DNA of 64,000 bases from Nitrospirae bacterium JdFR-81 (lineage in GTDB: Bacteria; Nitrospirota; Thermodesulfovibrionia; UBA6902): positions 91-64,090 of the forward strand of contig MTOQ01000058.1 of assembly GCA_002011735.1 (NCBI GenBank). The letters are read 5' to 3'. Below, piece by piece: positions 28,551 through 35,358 of this stretch. Position numbers and translations under genes: made by a program. Position 1 is the first letter of the stretch. Each line of letters opens with the position of its first letter. The notes beneath the pieces are model-generated. The model did no database searches. It worked only from the letters and a program-made list of their open reading frames with translations, and was not told the origin of the DNA.

Positions 28551-28912
28551 TTATACCGCAACACAAGTCTCGTCTTCAAAAACGATCAAAACATTCCTTG
28601 CGTTTTGACCTTAGCCAAGGTTATATTAGAGTCTGATACGCTGTGTACAAAAGGGATTAAAAGAACAGAAGATTAATCTTTAAATGACCGTGTCATGCCT
28701 AATTGCCTAATGGATGGTTATTATCTTTTGATAAAGATATAACTTAAAGGCCCCAGGTGAATAAGGCACCTAAATAAGCGTCTACTCTAAGTAATTCGAG
28801 TTTCTTTTAACACAAGCAGTATTATGCAAAAAGCAGGCAAAAACAAAGGTAGATACTTATCCTTATGATATTTATATGATTAAATTGATTGATATTTTTG
28901 GGAGGGCAAACC

Positions 28913-29668
28913 ATGTCTAAGAATAATGAGATCAAATTAAACAATGAAATAGCGAGGTATCAACGGACTATCGCTACACAGAAAAGGACCATCGCTACGC
29001 AAAAACGCACTATTGCAGCACAAAAAAGGACTATCGCAGCACAAAAAGAAAGGATGGCCATTGAAAAGAAGAAAGTTATCGAAATATCGGAGGTGGTTGA
29101 GAGAACAAGCATCCTCTTATCCCGAGTCATCGAATTGAGAGACCCGTATACGAAAGGCCACTCAGAACATGTAGCTGAAATAGTAGTAAATTTTGTTAAT
29201 TTAAACAGCCCATTAAATTTTTCAAAGGAAAAGATTCCGGTTATATATCGGGCGGCCTTACTCCATGATATTGGCAAAATCGGCATAACCGAGCAGGTCT
29301 TGAATAAGCCAACCAAGCTAACAGAAGCTGAATTTATTATGATCAAATATCATCCGATTCTTGGATATAATTTGATTAAACCTTTGCTTTTTGACGAGCT
29401 AATAAGGGATGCAATCTTATACCATCACGAAAATTTTGATGGAAGTGGTTATCCCCAAGGATTAAAGGGAGACAACATTCCACTAATTGCACGCATATTT
29501 AGAATCGCTGATTATTATGATGCATTAACAAGTAGTAGGCCATATCGTGAGGCCCTTAAACCTGATGAGGCACTGAGGATCATGAAAGAACAGAGCAATT
29601 GCTTTGACCCTGAATTATTTTCATTTTTTATTGAAAATATAAGATATCTCACGAGACGTTCCACATGA
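28913..29668 (+). CDS. HD-GYP domain protein with an N-terminal heptad tandem repeat
   Basis: HDIGKIGI and HHENFDGSGYP motifs. The N-terminus is YQRTIATQKRTIATQKRTIAAQKRTIAAQKERMAIEKKK. The gene is markedly more AT-rich than its neighbours, and an RBS GGGAGGG precedes the ATG at 28913. Confidence 0.75.
   Translation: MSKNNEIKLNNEIARYQRTIATQKRTIATQKRTIAAQKRTIAAQKERMAIEKKKVIEISEVVERTSILLSRVIELRDPYTKGHSEHVAEIVVNFVNLNSPLNFSKEKIPVIYRAALLHDIGKIGITEQVLNKPTKLTEAEFIMIKYHPILGYNLIKPLLFDELIRDAILYHHENFDGSGYPQGLKGDNIPLIARIFRIADYYDALTSSRPYREALKPDEALRIMKEQSNCFDPELFSFFIENIRYLTRRST
28964..29060 (+). repeat. 21-bp tandem repeat, about 4.6 copies, inside the HD-GYP coding sequence
   Basis: caacggactatcgctacacag / aaaaggaccatcgctacgcaa / aaacgcactattgcagcacaa / aaaaggactatcgcagcacaa / aaagaaagg... 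The copies encode a QKRTIA(T/A) heptad. Confidence 0.7.
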
Positions 29669-29765: not shown

Positions 29766-31862
29766 CTAACCACCCTTTTCCAATTCCCCTATGAATACCT
29801 CTACAACACGGGGGTCGAACTGTGTGCCAGAACACCTCTTGAGCTCCTCTATGGCCCTCTCTCTACCAGGTGTCCTGCGGTAGGGTCTTTCAGCGGTCAT
29901 TGAGTCGAATGTGTCTGCTACAGCCAGTATCCTGGAATGGAGGGGGATATCCTCTCCCTTAAGCCCCTCTGGATACCCCTTTCCATCCCACCTTTCGTGG
30001 TGGTGTCTTATCCAGGGGATAATGTGTCTTAGCTGTCTTATTGGTGAGAGAAGACGGGCGGACTTCTCAGGGTGTGCCTTGACAACCTCGTATTCCTCAT
30101 CTGTGAGTCTGCCTGGCTTGTCAAGCAGGGCATCATATGTGCCTATCTTGCCTATGTCGTGGAGCAGACCCGCAATCCTGAGGTCCTCAAGCTCCCTCTC
30201 ATCCATACCCATGGCCCTCCCTATAATGAGTGCGTATTCTGTAACCCTCTCTGAGTGTCCCCTTGTCCAGGGACTCTTTGTGTCTATCGCCTCTGAGAGT
30301 GCGGTTATGGTGCCGATAAAGAGTTCCCTGAGATCTGTAAACAGCCTTGAGTTTTCAAGTGCAACAGATATCTGTGCAGAGATATTCTCTATGGTAGAGA
30401 TATCTTCAGGGGAAAAGGCAGATGGTCTCCTTGATGCGATTATCAATACCCCTATACCCTCATCCTTTATAATCAAGGGATAGCAGATGAGTGATTGCAG
30501 GCCCTCCTCAAGCATCATCTCCATCATGTGGCATCGGTTCAGCGGTTCTTTGAGGTCAGGTCTGTAGCTGACCCTCCCGTGTTCTATCACACCACATATC
30601 TCATTCGCCTCGGCCCTTGCAAACATCTTCTTCTCTATTGATTCAAGACCAAAGCCTGCCTCATACTGGAAGCATCCGCTCTCCTTGCTGCTGAGGATTA
30701 TGGCAGAGGCATCACAATTGACAACCACCTTTCTTATCATCCTCACGGCGGTGTTTAATATCTCCCTCCTGTCGAGTGTTGAGAGCACAGACCTGTCGAT
30801 CTCATGCATCACCTGTATGGTCTCTATCTTGCGGGAGAGCTCCATGGTCTTCTCTATGGACTCCTTATAAAGGTTCGCCTCCTCAAGGGCTATGGAGACC
30901 TGATTTGATATCCCCCTCATGATGATATAGTCCCTCTCCTCAAACGCCCTATCCTCTCTGTAGGCATTCAGTATCAGACCCAACAACCGCCTCCTGCCCT
31001 TCAACGGGATGAAGGAGATAGACCTGTAATCCTTCAGCCATGCAAGTGGTGCAAGGGGCTGTATATCACCGTTGATCACCTTGATCTCAATGGATTCAGG
31101 CCCATGAAATCCAAGCCTCCTCAATGCGTCTATGGCGAGCGTCTCTGTCCTGAATGTGGCCTTCAGATCATGTGTCAGGCCTGAGGAGCTCCGTGGGCGG
31201 AGGACCTTGTATTCATCATCCCACAGATAGAAGAGGCAGGCGTCACAGTCCATGATCCTTCTGACATTATCCACCGTCAGCTTCATAAGGGCATCCATGT
31301 TTGTCGTCCGTGCAGTGGCCTCGGTGAGGGTGAGGAGGCTCGTGGAGATATCCCTCTCAAGCCTTATCCGCTCCTCTGCCCTCTTCTCCTCGGTGATGTC
31401 CTCCATGATATGGAATGAGTGGAGTAGTCTGCCCTCGGTATCATATACAGGATAATACCTGACCTTAAAGACCTTCCCACCAATTGTCATCTCCTCCTCT
31501 TCTTCCCTGCCTGTCTCAAGGGCCCTGATGCACGCTGCCGACGGTCCGTCCATCCTTGGAAATATCTCATAGTATGGCCTTCCTATGATACTTATATAAT
31601 CCATACCTGCATGTTCTCTATAGGCCCTGTTTGCCCGTATGATCCTGAAGTCTCTGTCGTGCATGATAATGGGGTCTGATATCCTGTCGAATGTGAGCTC
31701 CCAGTCCTTCTTTGCCTGCTCAAGCCTCTCTGTGGACTCATTCAGATCCTCAAGCATATAGAGCATGGCGGTGCGTGTCTCTTCGAGGTCGCGTTCCCTC
31801 TCCTTTGCCTTCTCAAGCTCTCTCCTGAGCTCCTGGATTATCCTGTCCTTGTCAAGCTCCAC
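29766..31862 (-). CDS. Coiled-coil, PAS, GAF, GAF, HD-GYP phosphodiesterase
   Basis: A C-terminal HD-GYP domain (HDIGKIGT...HHERWDGKGYPEGL) and an N-terminal coiled coil. Confidence 0.75.
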   Translation of the reverse strand: MELDKDRIIQELRRELEKAKERERDLEETRTAMLYMLEDLNESTERLEQAKKDWELTFDRISDPIIMHDRDFRIIRANRAYREHAGMDYISIIGRPYYEIFPRMDGPSAACIRALETGREEEEEMTIGGKVFKVRYYPVYDTEGRLLHSFHIMEDITEEKRAEERIRLERDISTSLLTLTEATARTTNMDALMKLTVDNVRRIMDCDACLFYLWDDEYKVLRPRSSSGLTHDLKATFRTETLAIDALRRLGFHGPESIEIKVINGDIQPLAPLAWLKDYRSISFIPLKGRRRLLGLILNAYREDRAFEERDYIIMRGISNQVSIALEEANLYKESIEKTMELSRKIETIQVMHEIDRSVLSTLDRREILNTAVRMIRKVVVNCDASAIILSSKESGCFQYEAGFGLESIEKKMFARAEANEICGVIEHGRVSYRPDLKEPLNRCHMMEMMLEEGLQSLICYPLIIKDEGIGVLIIASRRPSAFSPEDISTIENISAQISVALENSRLFTDLRELFIGTITALSEAIDTKSPWTRGHSERVTEYALIIGRAMGMDERELEDLRIAGLLHDIGKIGTYDALLDKPGRLTDEEYEVVKAHPEKSARLLSPIRQLRHIIPWIRHHHERWDGKGYPEGLKGEDIPLHSRILAVADTFDSMTAERPYRRTPGRERAIEELKRCSGTQFDPRVVEVFIGELEKGG

Positions 31863-33411
31863 CCTTGTCCCTCAACCTCCTGAGTTCTGTCTCAAGGTCC
31901 CTGACCCTCTCCTGCAATTCCCTTATCCTGAACTCCCTCTTTATGGTGGCCCTCCTGAACCTCTCAAGTTCATTCAACCTCTCCTTGAGGCTTTCCTCTG
32001 TCTCGCTCCTATAGATCGCAACCCCTAATATGTCTGCTGCTGTCCTCAGGGCATCGATCTCTATTATTGACCATTCCCTCTCCTGTCTGCACTCATCGAA
32101 ACCCATGAACCCCCACCATCTGTCCTTCACAAATATGGGCATGGCAAGGATGGACTTGATATCCTGTGCCTTCAAGACCTCCTGCTCAGCCCCTGGAAAG
32201 TCCTTTATATTTCCATATACCGGCTCTCCCTTCTGCATTATATCTACCCACCTATGAAATCCCTTCTCCTCTGCCGGGAAGTCCTGTAGTTCGGGGTTAT
32301 CTATCTGTGGCTCGACGCCCTCTGCTACCCATTCGAAGAGCTGACTACAGAGGAGCCTTCCATCTTCAGAGGTGTGACTCTTGAATATATACACCCGACT
32401 CACATCACTTGCTATGCCAATGCGCTGGAGTATCCCATTGATGTTCCTATCCCATGGGCCTGGCCTCAGGAACTCCTCTGCTGCAAACCTCACGGACTCA
32501 AGGATCGCCTCACGCCTCCTCATGGCCCTCTCAGCCATCACACGCTCTGTGACATCGCGGAGATTGACAAGCACCATCACGCCCTCGTCCCAGGGCACGA
32601 GGTTCACCGTCATATCCATTGGACAGATACTGCCATCAGACCTGAGGAACTCCACCGATTCAAGCACGGTCTTCTGGACCCTGACCTCTCTGGTGAGGTC
32701 TTCAAATGTCAGGGGTGTTGAGGGGCTGAGGAGGATCGAGAAGGGCTTTCCTATGAGGGTCTCCTCAAAATAACCGAGCAGCCTGAAGGTGGTCCTGTTT
32801 GCAGACCTTATGATACCTGATGGGCTCACTATCATTAATACATCAGGTGAGTTGTTAAAGATGGCCCTCAACTTTGCCTCTGACTCAAGCACCGCCCTCT
32901 CTGAATCCTTTCGCTGGATTATGCCTGACAGTGTGTTGGCCACAGCCATTAGGAAGTCCCTCTCTCTTTGTGATTCCCTGTGTCCCTCCTCAAGGTATAT
33001 ATTTATCACCCCTTTCACCCTCTCCCTGTATAGGATAGGGACACAGTAATGGCCATGCGGAGTGACCCCCGAGAATGGAGGTGAATGATCCTGATGAAGG
33101 GAATCGGTAAACTGTATCTCCTTTGTGGCAGCGGTAAGCCCACAGAGGCAGCTACCGAACCTTACCCGTGAACACCTCTGCCTTATCTCCTCGGGCAGGC
33201 CCCTTTGAGCCTTCATTATCAATACCCCTTCCTCGGCAACGAATATCGCACCCTTTGGCTGGAATGTAAGCCACTCAACAGAGAGTATCTCTTCAAGGGC
33301 CCTGTCCAGTACCTCCTCGAGTGAGAGGTCCTCAAGTGAGAGCCTCAGGAGGTTGCCAAGGACCTCCTGGATGTTATGCTGGCCCTTGACCTCATGGTGT
33401 TCATCCCTCAT
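31852..33411 (-). CDS. GAF/PAS sensor-domain protein with a C-terminal coiled coil and no output domain
   Basis: PAS/GAF-like segments only. It ends ...LNELERFRRATIKREFRIRELQERVRDLETELRRLR. It overlaps the upstream gene by ATGA and the downstream gene by 11 nt. Confidence 0.6.
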   Translation of the reverse strand: MRDEHHEVKGQHNIQEVLGNLLRLSLEDLSLEEVLDRALEEILSVEWLTFQPKGAIFVAEEGVLIMKAQRGLPEEIRQRCSRVRFGSCLCGLTAATKEIQFTDSLHQDHSPPFSGVTPHGHYCVPILYRERVKGVINIYLEEGHRESQRERDFLMAVANTLSGIIQRKDSERAVLESEAKLRAIFNNSPDVLMIVSPSGIIRSANRTTFRLLGYFEETLIGKPFSILLSPSTPLTFEDLTREVRVQKTVLESVEFLRSDGSICPMDMTVNLVPWDEGVMVLVNLRDVTERVMAERAMRRREAILESVRFAAEEFLRPGPWDRNINGILQRIGIASDVSRVYIFKSHTSEDGRLLCSQLFEWVAEGVEPQIDNPELQDFPAEEKGFHRWVDIMQKGEPVYGNIKDFPGAEQEVLKAQDIKSILAMPIFVKDRWWGFMGFDECRQEREWSIIEIDALRTAADILGVAIYRSETEESLKERLNELERFRRATIKREFRIRELQERVRDLETELRRLRDKGGA

Positions 33412-34313
33412 CCCCTCAACCTCCTGAGTTCCTCCTCAAGATCCTTTATCCTCCTCCTCAACTCCTCCATCCTCAACTCCCTCTTCACCGTAACCTTTCT
33501 GAACCTCTCAAGCTCGTCCACCCTCTTCCTCAGCTCCTCCTCCGCCTTCTTCCTGGTGGTGATATCCGTGAGGCTTATGAGAGCAATGGCACCTTCCTTT
33601 CTGCGATCTATCAGTGAGACCTCTGCAAGGAACGTCATGGCGTCCTCATCCACTCCAGAAACACCTGCCCCCTCATTACACACAGGGGGGAGCGTTACCT
33701 CCCTCCTCTGACATTCAAGCGTCTTGAAACACCTGAACAGCTCCCTTTTGAGTATATCCACAACATCCCTTGGCTTTATAGGGATATGCGACTTATCGGG
33801 GCCTATATTTGTTGAGAGTATCTCATATCTATCATTGAGGATTATAAGGACCGCTGGAACCGCTGCCACTATACCTTCTATGAACTCCTTCTGGGCCTGG
33901 GTGGTCTTGATGGCGTGTTCAAGCTCACCGGCCATCCTGTTAAAGCCCTGGGTCAACTGCCCTATCTCGTCATCAGAGGTGTAGTCTATCCTCGTATCCA
34001 GCCTCCCGTTTGCCAGTCTGTTGACCACCTCATTTAACCTCTTTATCGGATCCGTTATCTTTCTTGAGATCAATATCGAGATAAAAAGGACCAGAAGGCA
34101 TCCAAGGATTGTAAGACCTGAACTGAGGGATATGAAGCGAGACGATATGTTCTTTATCATCTCGGCATTCAACTGCTCTGCGGTGAGGCTCTCCTTTAAG
34201 ACATACTGAAAGGACAGGTTGATGAGTATACCACCGATTACTATTATCATGAAGAAGGATATGATGATCTTGTTCCTGAGGCTTGAGGCCGGCTGTTTCA
34301 CATCGTTCTGCAT
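33408..34313 (-). CDS. Membrane HAMP, PAS protein with a C-terminal coiled coil and no output domain
   Basis: An N-terminal TM pair, a HAMP-like segment (RLNEVVNRLANGRLD) and a PAS-like core. It ends ...VDELERFRKVTVKRELRMEELRRRIKDLEEELRRLRG. Confidence 0.6.
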   Translation of the reverse strand: MQNDVKQPASSLRNKIIISFFMIIVIGGILINLSFQYVLKESLTAEQLNAEMIKNISSRFISLSSGLTILGCLLVLFISILISRKITDPIKRLNEVVNRLANGRLDTRIDYTSDDEIGQLTQGFNRMAGELEHAIKTTQAQKEFIEGIVAAVPAVLIILNDRYEILSTNIGPDKSHIPIKPRDVVDILKRELFRCFKTLECQRREVTLPPVCNEGAGVSGVDEDAMTFLAEVSLIDRRKEGAIALISLTDITTRKKAEEELRKRVDELERFRKVTVKRELRMEELRRRIKDLEEELRRLRG

Positions 34314-34335: not shown

Positions 34336-35358
34336 CTATAAACTCAGTGTCCTGAGCAGATTATATCCTATGAAGAAGACGACCATGGCGGAGAAAAACC
34401 CCGTAAATGCCATTATCAGGGCCTTTGCACCATTGTTACTGAATAACCCCCTTATATCCGCATTGAGGCCTATGGCCGAGAGGGCGATTGACCAAGACAC
34501 CACATGGACGGGACGGATAAAGGGGATCATGATCTCGCTGTAGAGGTATTCATCGTATCTGGAGATCAATGTCCCTGCTATACCAGGGATGAGGAATATC
34601 CAGAGCACCAGTGGTATCTGGAACCTGCCCTTTATCATGCTTGCAAAGATGGGTATTGAGATGAGCAGGCCGAGGTATCTAACGGCCTTAACAGAGAGGG
34701 CCAGTGACAGGAGCCCCTCACCTGACATCACCCTCTCCAGATAAGGGATATTACCGACCGCTATCCTTATGAAACCGGTGAATTGCAGGACCATACCAGA
34801 GAGTATCCCGTAGGATCTGTCCGTCATGCCTGATATGGTTGCGATAAATGGGAAGATTATGAACAGGGCGGTCATGGCTGTGATGGTCACAGACAGCAAT
34901 GATATGGATACATCGTCAGGCTCTGCGTCCACTGCAGGCGATGTTATGACGATTGCAGAGGCACCACAGATGGCAGAGCCGTTGGCGATGAGGTAGGTTA
35001 TCTCCCGCTTCTGTCCCAACACCCTCCCTGATATGATTATGGATAGAAAGTAGACAGCCATCACGAGCAGGAGCAGGATGGCCATATCAAGGTGCACCTC
35101 TGCAAATCTCGTAAAATTCAGGTTATGGGCAGAGTAAAGGACCAGCCCGATCGGTATAAATACCCTTGTCGGAAGACTCAATCCCCCCTCTATATCTCCA
35201 ATATCAGGGAAGAGTGCCCTCACCATGATCCCGAGGATGAGAGAGACAACCAGCGGGTCTATCAGGGGAGAGTTCACCAAGATATGTATCCCATAGCCAC
35301 CTGCACCTATTATGGCTGCAAGTATTAGTCTAACAAGCTCTTTATGGTTGGTCTCCAT
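34336..35358 (-). CDS. Polytopic membrane protein, possibly YeiH/UPF0324-family transporter
   Basis: About 10 TM helices and a GSAICGASA motif. The family assignment is tentative. Confidence 0.4.
   Translation of the reverse strand: METNHKELVRLILAAIIGAGGYGIHILVNSPLIDPLVVSLILGIMVRALFPDIGDIEGGLSLPTRVFIPIGLVLYSAHNLNFTRFAEVHLDMAILLLLVMAVYFLSIIISGRVLGQKREITYLIANGSAICGASAIVITSPAVDAEPDDVSISLLSVTITAMTALFIIFPFIATISGMTDRSYGILSGMVLQFTGFIRIAVGNIPYLERVMSGEGLLSLALSVKAVRYLGLLISIPIFASMIKGRFQIPLVLWIFLIPGIAGTLISRYDEYLYSEIMIPFIRPVHVVSWSIALSAIGLNADIRGLFSNNGAKALIMAFTGFFSAMVVFFIGYNLLRTLSL

Follow-up and report, generated by a model that had tools for sequence, protein, structure and literature searches.

In the stressosome, one output, RsbT, is controlled by co-assembled RsbR paralogues, which differ in their sensors and have a conserved C-terminal STAS domain in common. 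The DHp (HisKA) domain has two antiparallel helices per subunit, and the four-helix bundle they form couples the sensor helices to the catalytic part. Short LOV or PAS-only proteins with a J-alpha coiled coil (PpSB1-LOV, SBW25-LOV, and W619_1-LOV) have a PAS core and a long C-terminal helix, and contain no effector domain. The S-helix, whose central heptad has an E-R-T signature and which always lies within a single polypeptide with a domain on either side, is considered to relay conformational signals rather than to serve dimerisation alone (Anantharaman, Balaji and Aravind, 2006; PMC1592074). For the short BLUF protein PapB and the EAL protein PapA it has been proposed that the signal passes via the C-terminal helices of PapB, while H-NOX proteins are partners of diguanylate cyclases, phosphodiesterases, and kinases (reviewed in PMC8846402). 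In genome annotation, sensors like those described here go under "PAS domain S-box protein" or are misnamed "histidine kinase", and how such output-less proteins signal is left open.

The window analysed, a stretch of 64,000 nucleotides, contains on its minus strand three overlapping genes called from the open reading frames, here named A, B, and C in the order of transcription. A and B end in a conserved helix, the tail, and C begins with a second conserved element, the head. The two former proteins would be stand-alone input modules and the latter their effector. It is judged probable, at roughly two chances in three, that output-less sensors of this kind dock on the effector by packing of tail and head helices and regulate it in trans; physical contact between them is not demonstrated by any experiment or multimer model.

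Like the S-helix, the tail is a conserved coiled coil of about 40 residues that occurs beside PAS, GAF, and HAMP domains and has a polar Arg in its core (position d). It differs in having the core (K/Q/G)-R-E, in being C-terminal, and in its proposed pairing with a second motif on another protein. An assignment as an S-helix was rejected, as the tail has no ERT signature and is found at most 20 residues from the C-terminus, not between domains, in 136 of the 142 clean matches among the best 150 of a profile search. S-helix and tail or head are separate elements, since a canonical ERT S-helix lies directly upstream of a tail or a head in P0057, L027, and L070. In PapB/PapA and the H-NOX systems a separate sensor polypeptide also controls a c-di-GMP enzyme with a nearby gene, but these are individual pairs with their own interfaces (PMC8846402), whereas tail and head would make up one portable motif pair with many inputs (PAS, GAF, HAMP, REC, PocR, Cache), two outputs (HD-GYP and histidine kinase), and several sensors per effector. 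The stressosome shares the variable N-terminal sensors, the constant C-terminal assembly module, and the connection of several sensors to one output; its module is, however, a globular STAS domain in an icosahedral complex, while the tail is a single helix that is suggested to pair with an effector helix. The short LOV proteins resemble A in their PAS core, long C-terminal helix, and lack of an effector domain, and to our knowledge neither an ELERF...RE...EL motif nor an adjacent head-bearing effector is known for them.

Organisation of the locus

Gene A (33408-34313, minus strand) starts with ATG and encodes 301 amino acids with two TM helices, a HAMP domain, a PAS-like domain, and the tail. 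The HAMP domain is detected by Pfam at residues 81-132 (E=2.5e-17), and an AlphaFold model places the TM helices at 11-44 and 50-82, the two HAMP helices at 84-136, an alpha/beta domain at 140-250, and a single helix at 252-300, so that Pfam and the model together give the two TM helices followed by HAMP that define a HAMP membrane sensor. The middle region gave no Pfam match for PAS. It resembles the HAMP-PAS regions of WalK and AtoS in NCBIfam alignments, and residues 140-250 of the model (pLDDT about 70-86) match WalK, VicK 4i5s, the Rv1364c PAS domain, FixL, and short LOV proteins in Foldseek; judged by these model matches and the NCBIfam similarity, it qualifies as a predicted PAS domain. 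The tail of A (33411-33560, minus strand; amino acids 252-301) is modelled as one continuous helix, coming out of the PAS domain, with pLDDT 83-93. The conserved motif DELERFRKVTVKRELRMEEL (33459-33518) makes up its N-terminal half and a leucine zipper, judged by matches to GCN4-type coiled coils, its C-terminal half; no residues remain after it. The JGI name of A, 'signal transduction histidine kinase', was rejected, as neither Pfam nor NCBIfam finds HisKA or HATPase_c in A or B.

Gene B (31852-33411, minus strand) also starts with ATG. Its 519 amino acids comprise a GAF domain at 29-166, a PAS domain at 180-291, a second GAF domain at 327-466, and a tail (31855-31995, minus strand; amino acids 473-519, NELERFRRATIKREFRIRELQERVRDLETELRRLRDKGGA), as found by Pfam and NCBIfam for the domains. 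Four residues remain after the tail in B. Both A and B thereby have what is expected of a sensor in the proposed system, a tail within about 30 residues of the C-terminus and no output domain. The tails of A and B have 28 identities in a 47-residue alignment and are about 73% identical in their DNA, and their zipper halves are nearly identical. The 3' end of the B tail is A-type at the DNA level, which suggests, as far as the nucleotide sequence can tell, recombination inside the tails. The identity between the two is partly local, given these signs of recombination and a Shine-Dalgarno site within the tail codons. The likeness as such is not a matter of chance composition, because the tail profile retrieves thousands of proteins.

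Gene C (29766-31862, minus strand) starts with GTG and encodes 698 amino acids, in which a head coiled coil is followed by PAS_4 at 58-161, GAF domains at 188-327 and 363-503, and HD-GYP at 522-686. The last domain is matched by HD_5 (E=7.4e-45) and HD (E=5e-23) in Pfam, and the sequence retains LHDIGK, HHHERWDGKGYP, and ADTFD. By its domain and metal-binding residues C is an HD-GYP c-di-GMP phosphodiesterase, its enzymatic activity being inferred. The original prediction, which was made from the letters alone, that the first two proteins have no output domain and the third has one thus agrees with Pfam and NCBIfam. The head of C (31695-31862, minus strand; amino acids 1-56) consists of an N-terminal zipper and then a conserved motif, RDLEETRTAMLYMLEDLNES (31734-31790), the head motif being counted as residues 30-42, and leads straight into the PAS domain. 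C thus carries the head motif in the next downstream gene together with an HD-GYP output, as the proposed system demands of an effector. A complementary charged coiled coil had been predicted at this end of C. A complementary element is indeed present, but the charged stretch that had been quoted (residues 1-28) is not it. It comes just behind that stretch at about residues 24-44, RDLEETRTAMLYMLEDLNEST, and is the AMLYMLEDLNES motif plus the preceding zipper, not simply a charged helix.

Direct reading of the sequence bears out the predicted coordinates and overlaps of all three genes. The stop codon of A overlaps the start of B in ATGA (33408-33411, minus strand), and an AGGAGG for B (33420-33425, minus strand) lies within the A tail codons L-R-R-L, 8 nt upstream of the B ATG. 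At the other junction the stop codon of B and the GTG of C are found within an 11-nt overlap (31852-31862, minus strand); here an AGGAGG (31876-31881, minus strand) is placed within the B tail codons 13 nt upstream of the GTG, and a GAGGG 6 nt upstream. A PF03601 (Cons_hypoth698) membrane-protein gene (34336-35358, minus strand; Pfam) is located 22 nt upstream of A. Every orthologous locus has it as upstream neighbour, and it probably shares an operon with A; a scan for promoters and terminators gave nothing above shuffled background that helps to define the operon.

A and C are constant in the orthologous loci, while B is absent or differently built. In L008 and L006 C follows directly after A, and the A/C junction of L008 is of the B/C type. 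In L010 B is replaced by a PAS-PAS-GAF-tail protein, and L009 has a longer middle gene; both middle genes end in a tail. The middle gene of L009 is read as two ORFs, for which a frameshift in the assembly is the probable cause. Contrary to what had been implied, it is not the set of three genes that is conserved but a unit of one or more tail genes with a head gene after them.

If A, B, and C were fragments of one ancestral ORF, that is, pseudogenes made by frameshifts or assembly errors, the tail would be the start of a truncated domain. The fused architectures found elsewhere and the divided middle gene of L009 could be taken in that direction. However, the split is identical in independent assemblies (L001 and L002) and in orthologues at 52-88% identity, where A always terminates at the same place, and it recurs in about 100 other loci, each gene with its own start codon and Shine-Dalgarno site. 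At least 12 phyla are represented among the roughly 160 genes in which a stop codon follows the tail, and the tail matches no known domain. The fragment explanation, to which next to no credence is given, is effectively refuted.

Sequence and distribution of the two motifs

The tail consensus is ELERF(R/H/N)(K/D)AT(I/V)xRE(F/L)R(M/I)KEL followed by a leucine zipper, together a helix of about 45 residues. Among 107 tails the R-E of the core is invariant, and E, L, and F are near invariant. The tail profile retrieved 6155 protein clusters at E<=1e-3, with E down to 1e-15, from a search of 1.84 billion representatives. A tail-only scan of genomes gave 66 loci, in which every significant tail is found 0-28 residues from the stop codon. 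They are distributed over Nitrospinota, Nitrospirota, Thermodesulfobacteriota, Zetaproteobacteria, Bacteroidota, Caldisericota, Planctomycetota, Omnitrophota, Cloacimonadota, Calditrichota, and Acidobacteriota, among others. All 161 tail proteins examined have input domains only (PAS, HAMP, GAF, REC, PocR, Cache). A count for 105 of the tail proteins gave PAS 68, HAMP 28, REC 12, GAF 11, and PocR 11, as well as Cache and 4HB, and no output domain; the letters GGDEF occur in two tail proteins, in which Pfam finds no GGDEF domain. A CheR-TPR methyltransferase also bears a tail.

That the tail belongs to no named domain, as originally predicted, is supported by the absence of any Pfam or NCBIfam match. 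In the PDB it matches only chains of the GCN4 type, and only with its C-terminal half (profile positions 21-43, E=0.002-0.02). In the N-terminal half, which holds the motif, T and R occupy core positions and there are additional hydrophobic faces. A fused tail-linker-head would resemble the helical hairpin of a DHp domain, but tail and head have no phospho-acceptor His and no detectable profile similarity to it. A reading of the pair as a split, degenerate DHp (ELERF...(K)RELRM corresponding to ELE.F...SHELRTP, and MLEDLN to LveDLL) was rejected because alignment of tail and head with 21 HisKA segments of the same loci by hhalign gave a probability below 1%, because no kinase was returned by the PDB profile search with the tail, and because the head is found upstream of a genuine HisKA domain in the histidine-kinase partners. 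The possibility that the tail is the start of a known domain was thereby ruled out as far as Pfam, NCBIfam, the PDB, and HisKA are concerned. A word-index search with the tail alone gave 74 candidates, none of them significant, and residues 1-167 of C gave six matches, mostly fragmentary, the index being too coarse for short coiled coils; the tail and head families were instead recovered by exhaustive profile search and pattern scans. No description of the motifs was found in the open-access literature, also when the motif strings were searched for, which is not proof of absence.

The head consensus is a zipper, then (D/E)LEEtR(R/K)AMLYMLEDLNES, leading directly into the first PAS domain of C. 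Its core in C, R-x-AMLYMLEDLNES, can be written as R-x-AMLYMLED-x-N-E, and the residues corresponding to A32, E38, and D39 of C are conserved to at least 90% in 62 head proteins. The head is net acidic, and both motifs are hydrophobic on more than one helix face. The outputs of the 62 head proteins are HD-GYP in 32 and HisKA plus HATPase in 23, the remainder being truncated. The head is not always at the N-terminus: in 23 of 56 cases it lies inside the protein, with a signalling helix or PAS domain before it and HisKA after it, and a simple end-to-end docking picture can therefore not be general.

Co-occurrence of tail and head genes

A gene with the head motif is found directly downstream of the tail gene and on the same strand in 55 of the 59 tail-found loci with enough downstream sequence. 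The 56 head matches among 655 ORFs are all downstream of a tail gene, and in 31 of 56 pairs the gap between the two genes does not exceed 50 nt or the genes overlap. Adjacency was scored in the very loci from which the head profile had been built, with seeds collected by a strand-blind regular expression. The reciprocal head-to-tail scan is independent: a head-only scan of metagenomes gave 42 loci, 38 of them with room upstream, and a tail gene is located directly upstream in 36. Co-occurrence is thus very strong both ways. Orphan tails (L016, L059, and L064) and orphan heads (L088 and L101) occur as well. A check for relatives that encode the three as one polypeptide had been proposed, and fusions of tail and head exist: P0068 and P0030 contain a tail, a proline-rich linker of about 25 residues, a head, and a PAS domain in one chain. 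Only these two examples were found, and an AlphaFold model of P0068, made without an alignment, had a pLDDT of 56 and gave no usable packing information.

The adjacency of the genes proves functional linkage, not a tail-head interface. It could still be that the tails are homodimerisation zippers only, that C is influenced, if at all, via PAS-PAS or GAF surfaces or by co-expression, and that the head is an N-cap coiled coil of C's own dimer. The canonical zippers matched by the C-terminal half of the tail are parallel and dimeric, and there are known PAS sensors that end in helices without an effector domain, the short LOV proteins being among the Foldseek matches to A. A plain zipper would, however, neither keep an invariant R-E and a fixed T and F across at least 12 phyla nor be confined to output-less proteins, and neither its 93-95% co-occurrence with one specific motif, encoded by the following gene, nor its fusion to that motif would be expected. 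Homodimerisation as the sole function is considered unlikely.

The orphan tails and the tail on the CheR-TPR methyltransferase are what might be expected if the tail instead bound some common partner encoded outside the locus, such as a hub protein or nucleic acid, with head adjacency reflecting shared regulation only. The near-obligate two-way adjacency and the tail-head fusions point to the head as the partner, and no third conserved gene was seen across the loci, which leaves an outside partner very improbable.

Some covariation is seen between the proposed partners: K or R in the tail goes together with D or E in the head in 71 pairs, and D in the tail with K or R in the head in 17 (r=-0.82). 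The signal comes essentially from one clade, the FHD-type tails beside histidine kinases, and may therefore represent one evolutionary event; some shuffles reach similar values. Because of this phylogenetic confounding it is only a hint of tail-head contact.

A possible mechanism of docking

The original prediction of a split, modular signalling assembly is supported by all of the refutation tests named with it that were run, while its physical docking is only inferred. The head is arranged as the mirror image of the tail, zipper then motif against motif then zipper. A tail dimer might pack on a head dimer, most simply in antiparallel fashion, with zipper facing zipper and motif facing motif in a helical bundle. 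A ligand- or membrane-induced movement in the last PAS or GAF domain of the sensor could then be relayed by the bundle to the PAS-GAF-GAF-HD-GYP chain and there alter the hydrolysis of c-di-GMP by C. Direct contact is inferred, and so is anything said on its geometry and stoichiometry, on the direction of regulation, and on joint or competitive binding of A and B.

It is an evenly balanced question whether tail and head are, more generally, a dedicated and portable plug-and-socket pair that wires many stand-alone inputs in trans onto HD-GYP phosphodiesterases or histidine kinases, with several plugs per socket and with daisy-chaining through proteins having both head and tail. The inputs would in that case include PAS, GAF, HAMP, REC, PocR, Cache, and even CheR-TPR. 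Multi-subunit signalling of this kind, with sensors that can be exchanged, would be a previously unrecognised and phylogenetically broad class that fits neither the one-component nor the classical two-component design. If the docking pair is real, thousands of orphan sensors would be explained and their effectors could be predicted from sequence alone, and it would be seen how several signals, here from the membrane and the cytoplasm, meet at a single c-di-GMP phosphodiesterase or kinase. Synthetic sensor-effector combinations could also be built with such a small natural connector (about 45 plus 45 residues). The pair would further open to test the long-standing question of how a signal carried by conformational change gets across a helical bundle from one polypeptide to another.

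Several sensors feeding one effector would allow signal integration and exchangeable inputs. Tandem tail genes are very common and usually of different flavours, the REFRIKEL type being combined with the RELRMEEL, RELKMEEL, or REIRMNEL type, as expected for preferred heteromers. This, and the nearly identical zipper halves of A and B, would suit a function of the tails mainly in joining sensor to sensor, in A/B heterodimers or higher-order bundles, with the effector contacted via one member or via PAS domains. Tail-tail pairing cannot, however, be the core function, because many loci have a single tail gene and then a head gene (L006, L008, L019, L020, L022, L040, L042, and others), and it would leave the conserved head and the fused tail-linker-head proteins unexplained. 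Sensor-sensor joining as the main role is accordingly held to be improbable, and such association can coexist with the docking of tail on head. The number of tail sensors that could feed one effector varies, from A alone or A plus B to up to three elsewhere.

The overlapping genes and their shared C-terminal helix

Gene A (33408-34313, minus strand), gene B (31852-33411, minus strand), and gene C (29766-31862, minus strand) encode proteins of 301, 519, and 698 amino acids, the last with a GTG start. As read from the sequence, A and B overlap by ATGA, and B and C by 11 nt. The same locus is found, identical, in two independent public assemblies. The source names are "signal transduction histidine kinase" for A and "PAS domain S-box-containing protein" for B and C. 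Pfam identifies a HAMP domain in A, GAF-PAS-GAF in B, and PAS_4, two GAF domains, and HD_5/HD-GYP (E=7e-45) with intact catalytic motifs in C. The stretch between the HAMP domain and the conserved C-terminal helix (the tail) of A has no Pfam match; NCBIfam aligns it with WalK and AtoS over their HAMP-PAS part, and an AlphaFold model made from ten orthologues displays an alpha/beta domain at residues 140-250 that by structure comparison resembles WalK, VicK, FixL, and short LOV structures. The TM-HAMP-PAS label given to A in the original prediction therefore stands. No output domain of any kind was found in A or B, in agreement with the same prediction, and its observation of three overlapping sensor and effector genes, with a tail shared by A and B, is confirmed.

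The tails of A and B had been described as almost the same and not assignable to a named domain. They share 28 of 47 residues, and no Pfam or NCBIfam family covers them. The model of A shows residues 252-300 as a single helix, predicted with confidence, that continues from the last PAS strand. In a search with A, every orthologue (52-88% identity) ends in the same helix, and unrelated architectures share this ending, namely TM-4HB-HAMP-PAS, TM-HAMP, PAS-PAS, and a periplasmic multi-haem CxxCH domain followed by HAMP-GAF. When 1.84 billion representative proteins were searched with a profile built from twelve tails (A2), 6155 clusters matched at E<=1e-3, of which 51 reached E<=1e-10. The best 150 matches include five repetitive coiled-coil artefacts, and in 136 of the 142 clean matches from this set the tail lies at most 20 residues from the C-terminus. 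The consensus of 107 sequences is R-(V/L/I)-(E/D)-E-L-E-R-F-(R/H/N)-(K/D)-A-T-(I/V)-x-R-E-(F/L)-R-(M/I)-K-E-L-(R/K)-x-x-I-x-x-L. A plain leucine zipper makes up its second half, the only half with matches among solved structures (GCN4, designed coils). In the first half, T and R occupy core heptad positions, and further faces also bear hydrophobic residues. The tail is a genuine module. That it might be an S-helix was rejected, as it lacks the ERT signature of that helix and is never found between two domains (PMC1592074); genuine S-helices adjoin the tail in some proteins. Profile comparison and structure search likewise rejected DHp.

Association of tail genes with head genes

Translation of the genes after tail-bearing genes in related contigs revealed a motif, ...L..eLekA.ERE.DLEEtR(R/K)AMLYMLEDLNES..., that is strongly conserved at the N-terminus of C and its counterparts and runs directly into a PAS domain. 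This head is the mirror image of the tail, with the zipper first and the specific motif after it. The complementary charged coiled coil originally noticed in C holds as the zipper part of the head; the specific conserved motif had been left unquoted. The head is N-terminal in 33 cases and internal in 23, mostly kinases, where it precedes HisKA and follows either an ERT-type signalling helix or a PAS domain.

Tail peptide patterns alone, scanned against 185,579 species-representative genomes, gave 66 loci in at least a dozen phyla; tail genes often stand in tandem. Local profiles run on all six-frame ORFs place every significant tail 0-28 residues from a stop codon; among 655 ORFs of >=150 aa, 56 of 56 head matches are downstream of a tail gene. 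A head gene follows directly on the same strand in 55 of 65 tail loci. Of the other ten, six have under 1.2 kb remaining, and four lack a head despite sufficient sequence; without the six, the count is 55/59. Sixteen pairs overlap, and fifteen are 0-50 nt apart. A reciprocal scan of metagenomes with the head pattern alone found 42 loci, 36 with a tail gene directly upstream, four without room upstream, and two with none. The association is therefore valid in both directions, and co-occurrence in relatives, which the original prediction had set as a check for the three genes, is borne out for tail and head genes. The tail/head finding generalises well beyond the window.

The 105 tail proteins have input domains only, mainly PAS (68), HAMP (28), REC (12), GAF (11), and PocR (11); dCache, 4HB_MCP, and TPR are rarer, and CheR and 5TMR-LYT occur once each. 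None of 161 tail ORFs has an output domain. The 62 head proteins comprise 32 with HD-GYP, 23 with HisKA+HATPase_c, and seven that are truncated. A CheR methyltransferase-TPR protein (L003 5323-6729), whose gene leads a row of three tail genes, has a tail at its C-terminus (ELERFNKLMIGRELKMEEL), and the tail is therefore not confined to classical sensor domains. In the tail sensor P0012 (475 aa), a periplasmic part with two CxxCH haem-binding motifs precedes HAMP and GAF; this protein is possibly a redox sensor plugging into the same tail/head system.

Fusions, tandem tails, and the proposed docking

A search for fused relatives had also been suggested, and two proteins, P0068 (346 aa) and P0030 (945 aa), join a tail, through a proline-rich linker of some 25 residues, to a head and a following PAS domain within a single chain; each ends in another tail. 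Both carry a third tail flavour, ending ...N-E-L-(L/S)-x-x-L-G-x-x-P-P-(R)-Y, internally (before the linker and head) as well as C-terminally. A few further proteins (L003 6696-7748; P0134) have PAS domains flanked by a head at the N-terminus and a tail at the C-terminus, and may be adaptors able to chain modules.

Pairs of tail genes ahead of a single head gene usually differ in flavour (L017, L021, L023, L038, L049, L069, and others), which argues against simple redundancy and suggests non-equivalent docking positions or heteromers. One pairing is F-R-K-A-T...REFRIKEL with (L/M/I)-N-K-L-M-V-G-RELKMEEL, and another, adjoining kinases, FHDATIQREFRIKEL with FHDATI(N/D)REIRMNEL. In L024 (6222-6801), a REC-tail gene is separated from the following sensor gene by a small inserted cassette of two genes, a putative VapBC-like toxin-antitoxin pair judged solely by its translated sequences.

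The split modular assembly originally proposed, with sensors docking onto an effector, is supported by strong comparative evidence (adjacency both ways, fusions), the physical interaction itself being inferred. In the most economical model, a tail dimer and a head dimer would build a helical bundle, through which sensor movements would travel to the effector's first PAS domain and finally to the HD-GYP site. The bundle is inferred to be antiparallel, as suggested by the mirror-image order of zipper and motif and by the hairpin-like tail-linker-head fusions. Where the R-D-L-E-E stretch of the head contains D/E, the tail residue after F-(R/H) is K/R (71 pairs), and where the head contains K/R, that tail residue is D (17 pairs; r=-0.82). 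This charge swap is a hint of direct contact, but is given little weight since the swapped state is limited to one clade.

The stressosome RsbR paralogues are closest in logic to the tail/head system. Functionally, the nearest relatives are isolated examples of a separate sensor that acts on a c-di-GMP enzyme, among them PapB-PapA and the H-NOX partner proteins (PMC8846402). What is new is one sequence-defined helix pair reused across many inputs, two outputs, and many phyla. The HD-GYP architecture census consulted does not mention coiled coils, and a literature search of partial coverage did not find the motif strings; an earlier description elsewhere is not excluded.

The locus and its orthologues

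Orthologous loci keep the order PF03601 membrane protein, A, and effector, with a variable middle gene. C directly follows A with the same 11-nt overlap in L008 (A 88% identical), and in L006 (52%) A is followed by a short head-PAS-HD-GYP protein. The middle gene encodes PAS-PAS-GAF-tail in L010. In L009 (7903-10168) it is longer and found as two overlapping ORFs (463 and 300 aa) that joined would read PAS-PAS-GAF-PAS-GAF-tail, a split that is probably an assembly frameshift and not biology. Since the middle gene varies, the conserved unit is sensor(s) with tail plus effector with head, not the specific A-B-C trio.

In a DNA alignment of the junctions, the first half of the B tail is B-type, and its last ~45 nt match the A-type end at the L008 A/C junction. 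This points to B having been inserted or exchanged by recombination inside the tail-coding sequence. In both tails the L-R-R-L codons are CTC AGG AGG TTG and hence contain an AGGAGG Shine-Dalgarno sequence, at 33420-33425 (minus strand) in A, 8 nt before the B start, and at 31876-31881 (minus strand) in B, 13 nt before the C start. The match between A and B over their last ten residues thus partly reflects a nucleotide-level constraint in this genome; the motif half of the tail is conserved throughout the whole family.

Convergent to C, a small stand-alone HD-GYP protein (28889-29668, plus strand; 259 aa, HD_5 E=2e-38) has no head motif. Four tandem copies of a 21-nt repeat (28965-29047) encode QKRTIA(T/A) heptads at its N-terminus. 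L002 has this gene; the orthologous locus L008 lacks it. Upstream of A, at a distance of 22 nt, is a gene for a PF03601 (Cons_hypoth698) membrane protein (34336-35358, minus strand). As the constant upstream neighbour in all orthologous loci (L001, L002, L006-L010), it may share an operon with A and give a clue to what this membrane sensor monitors.
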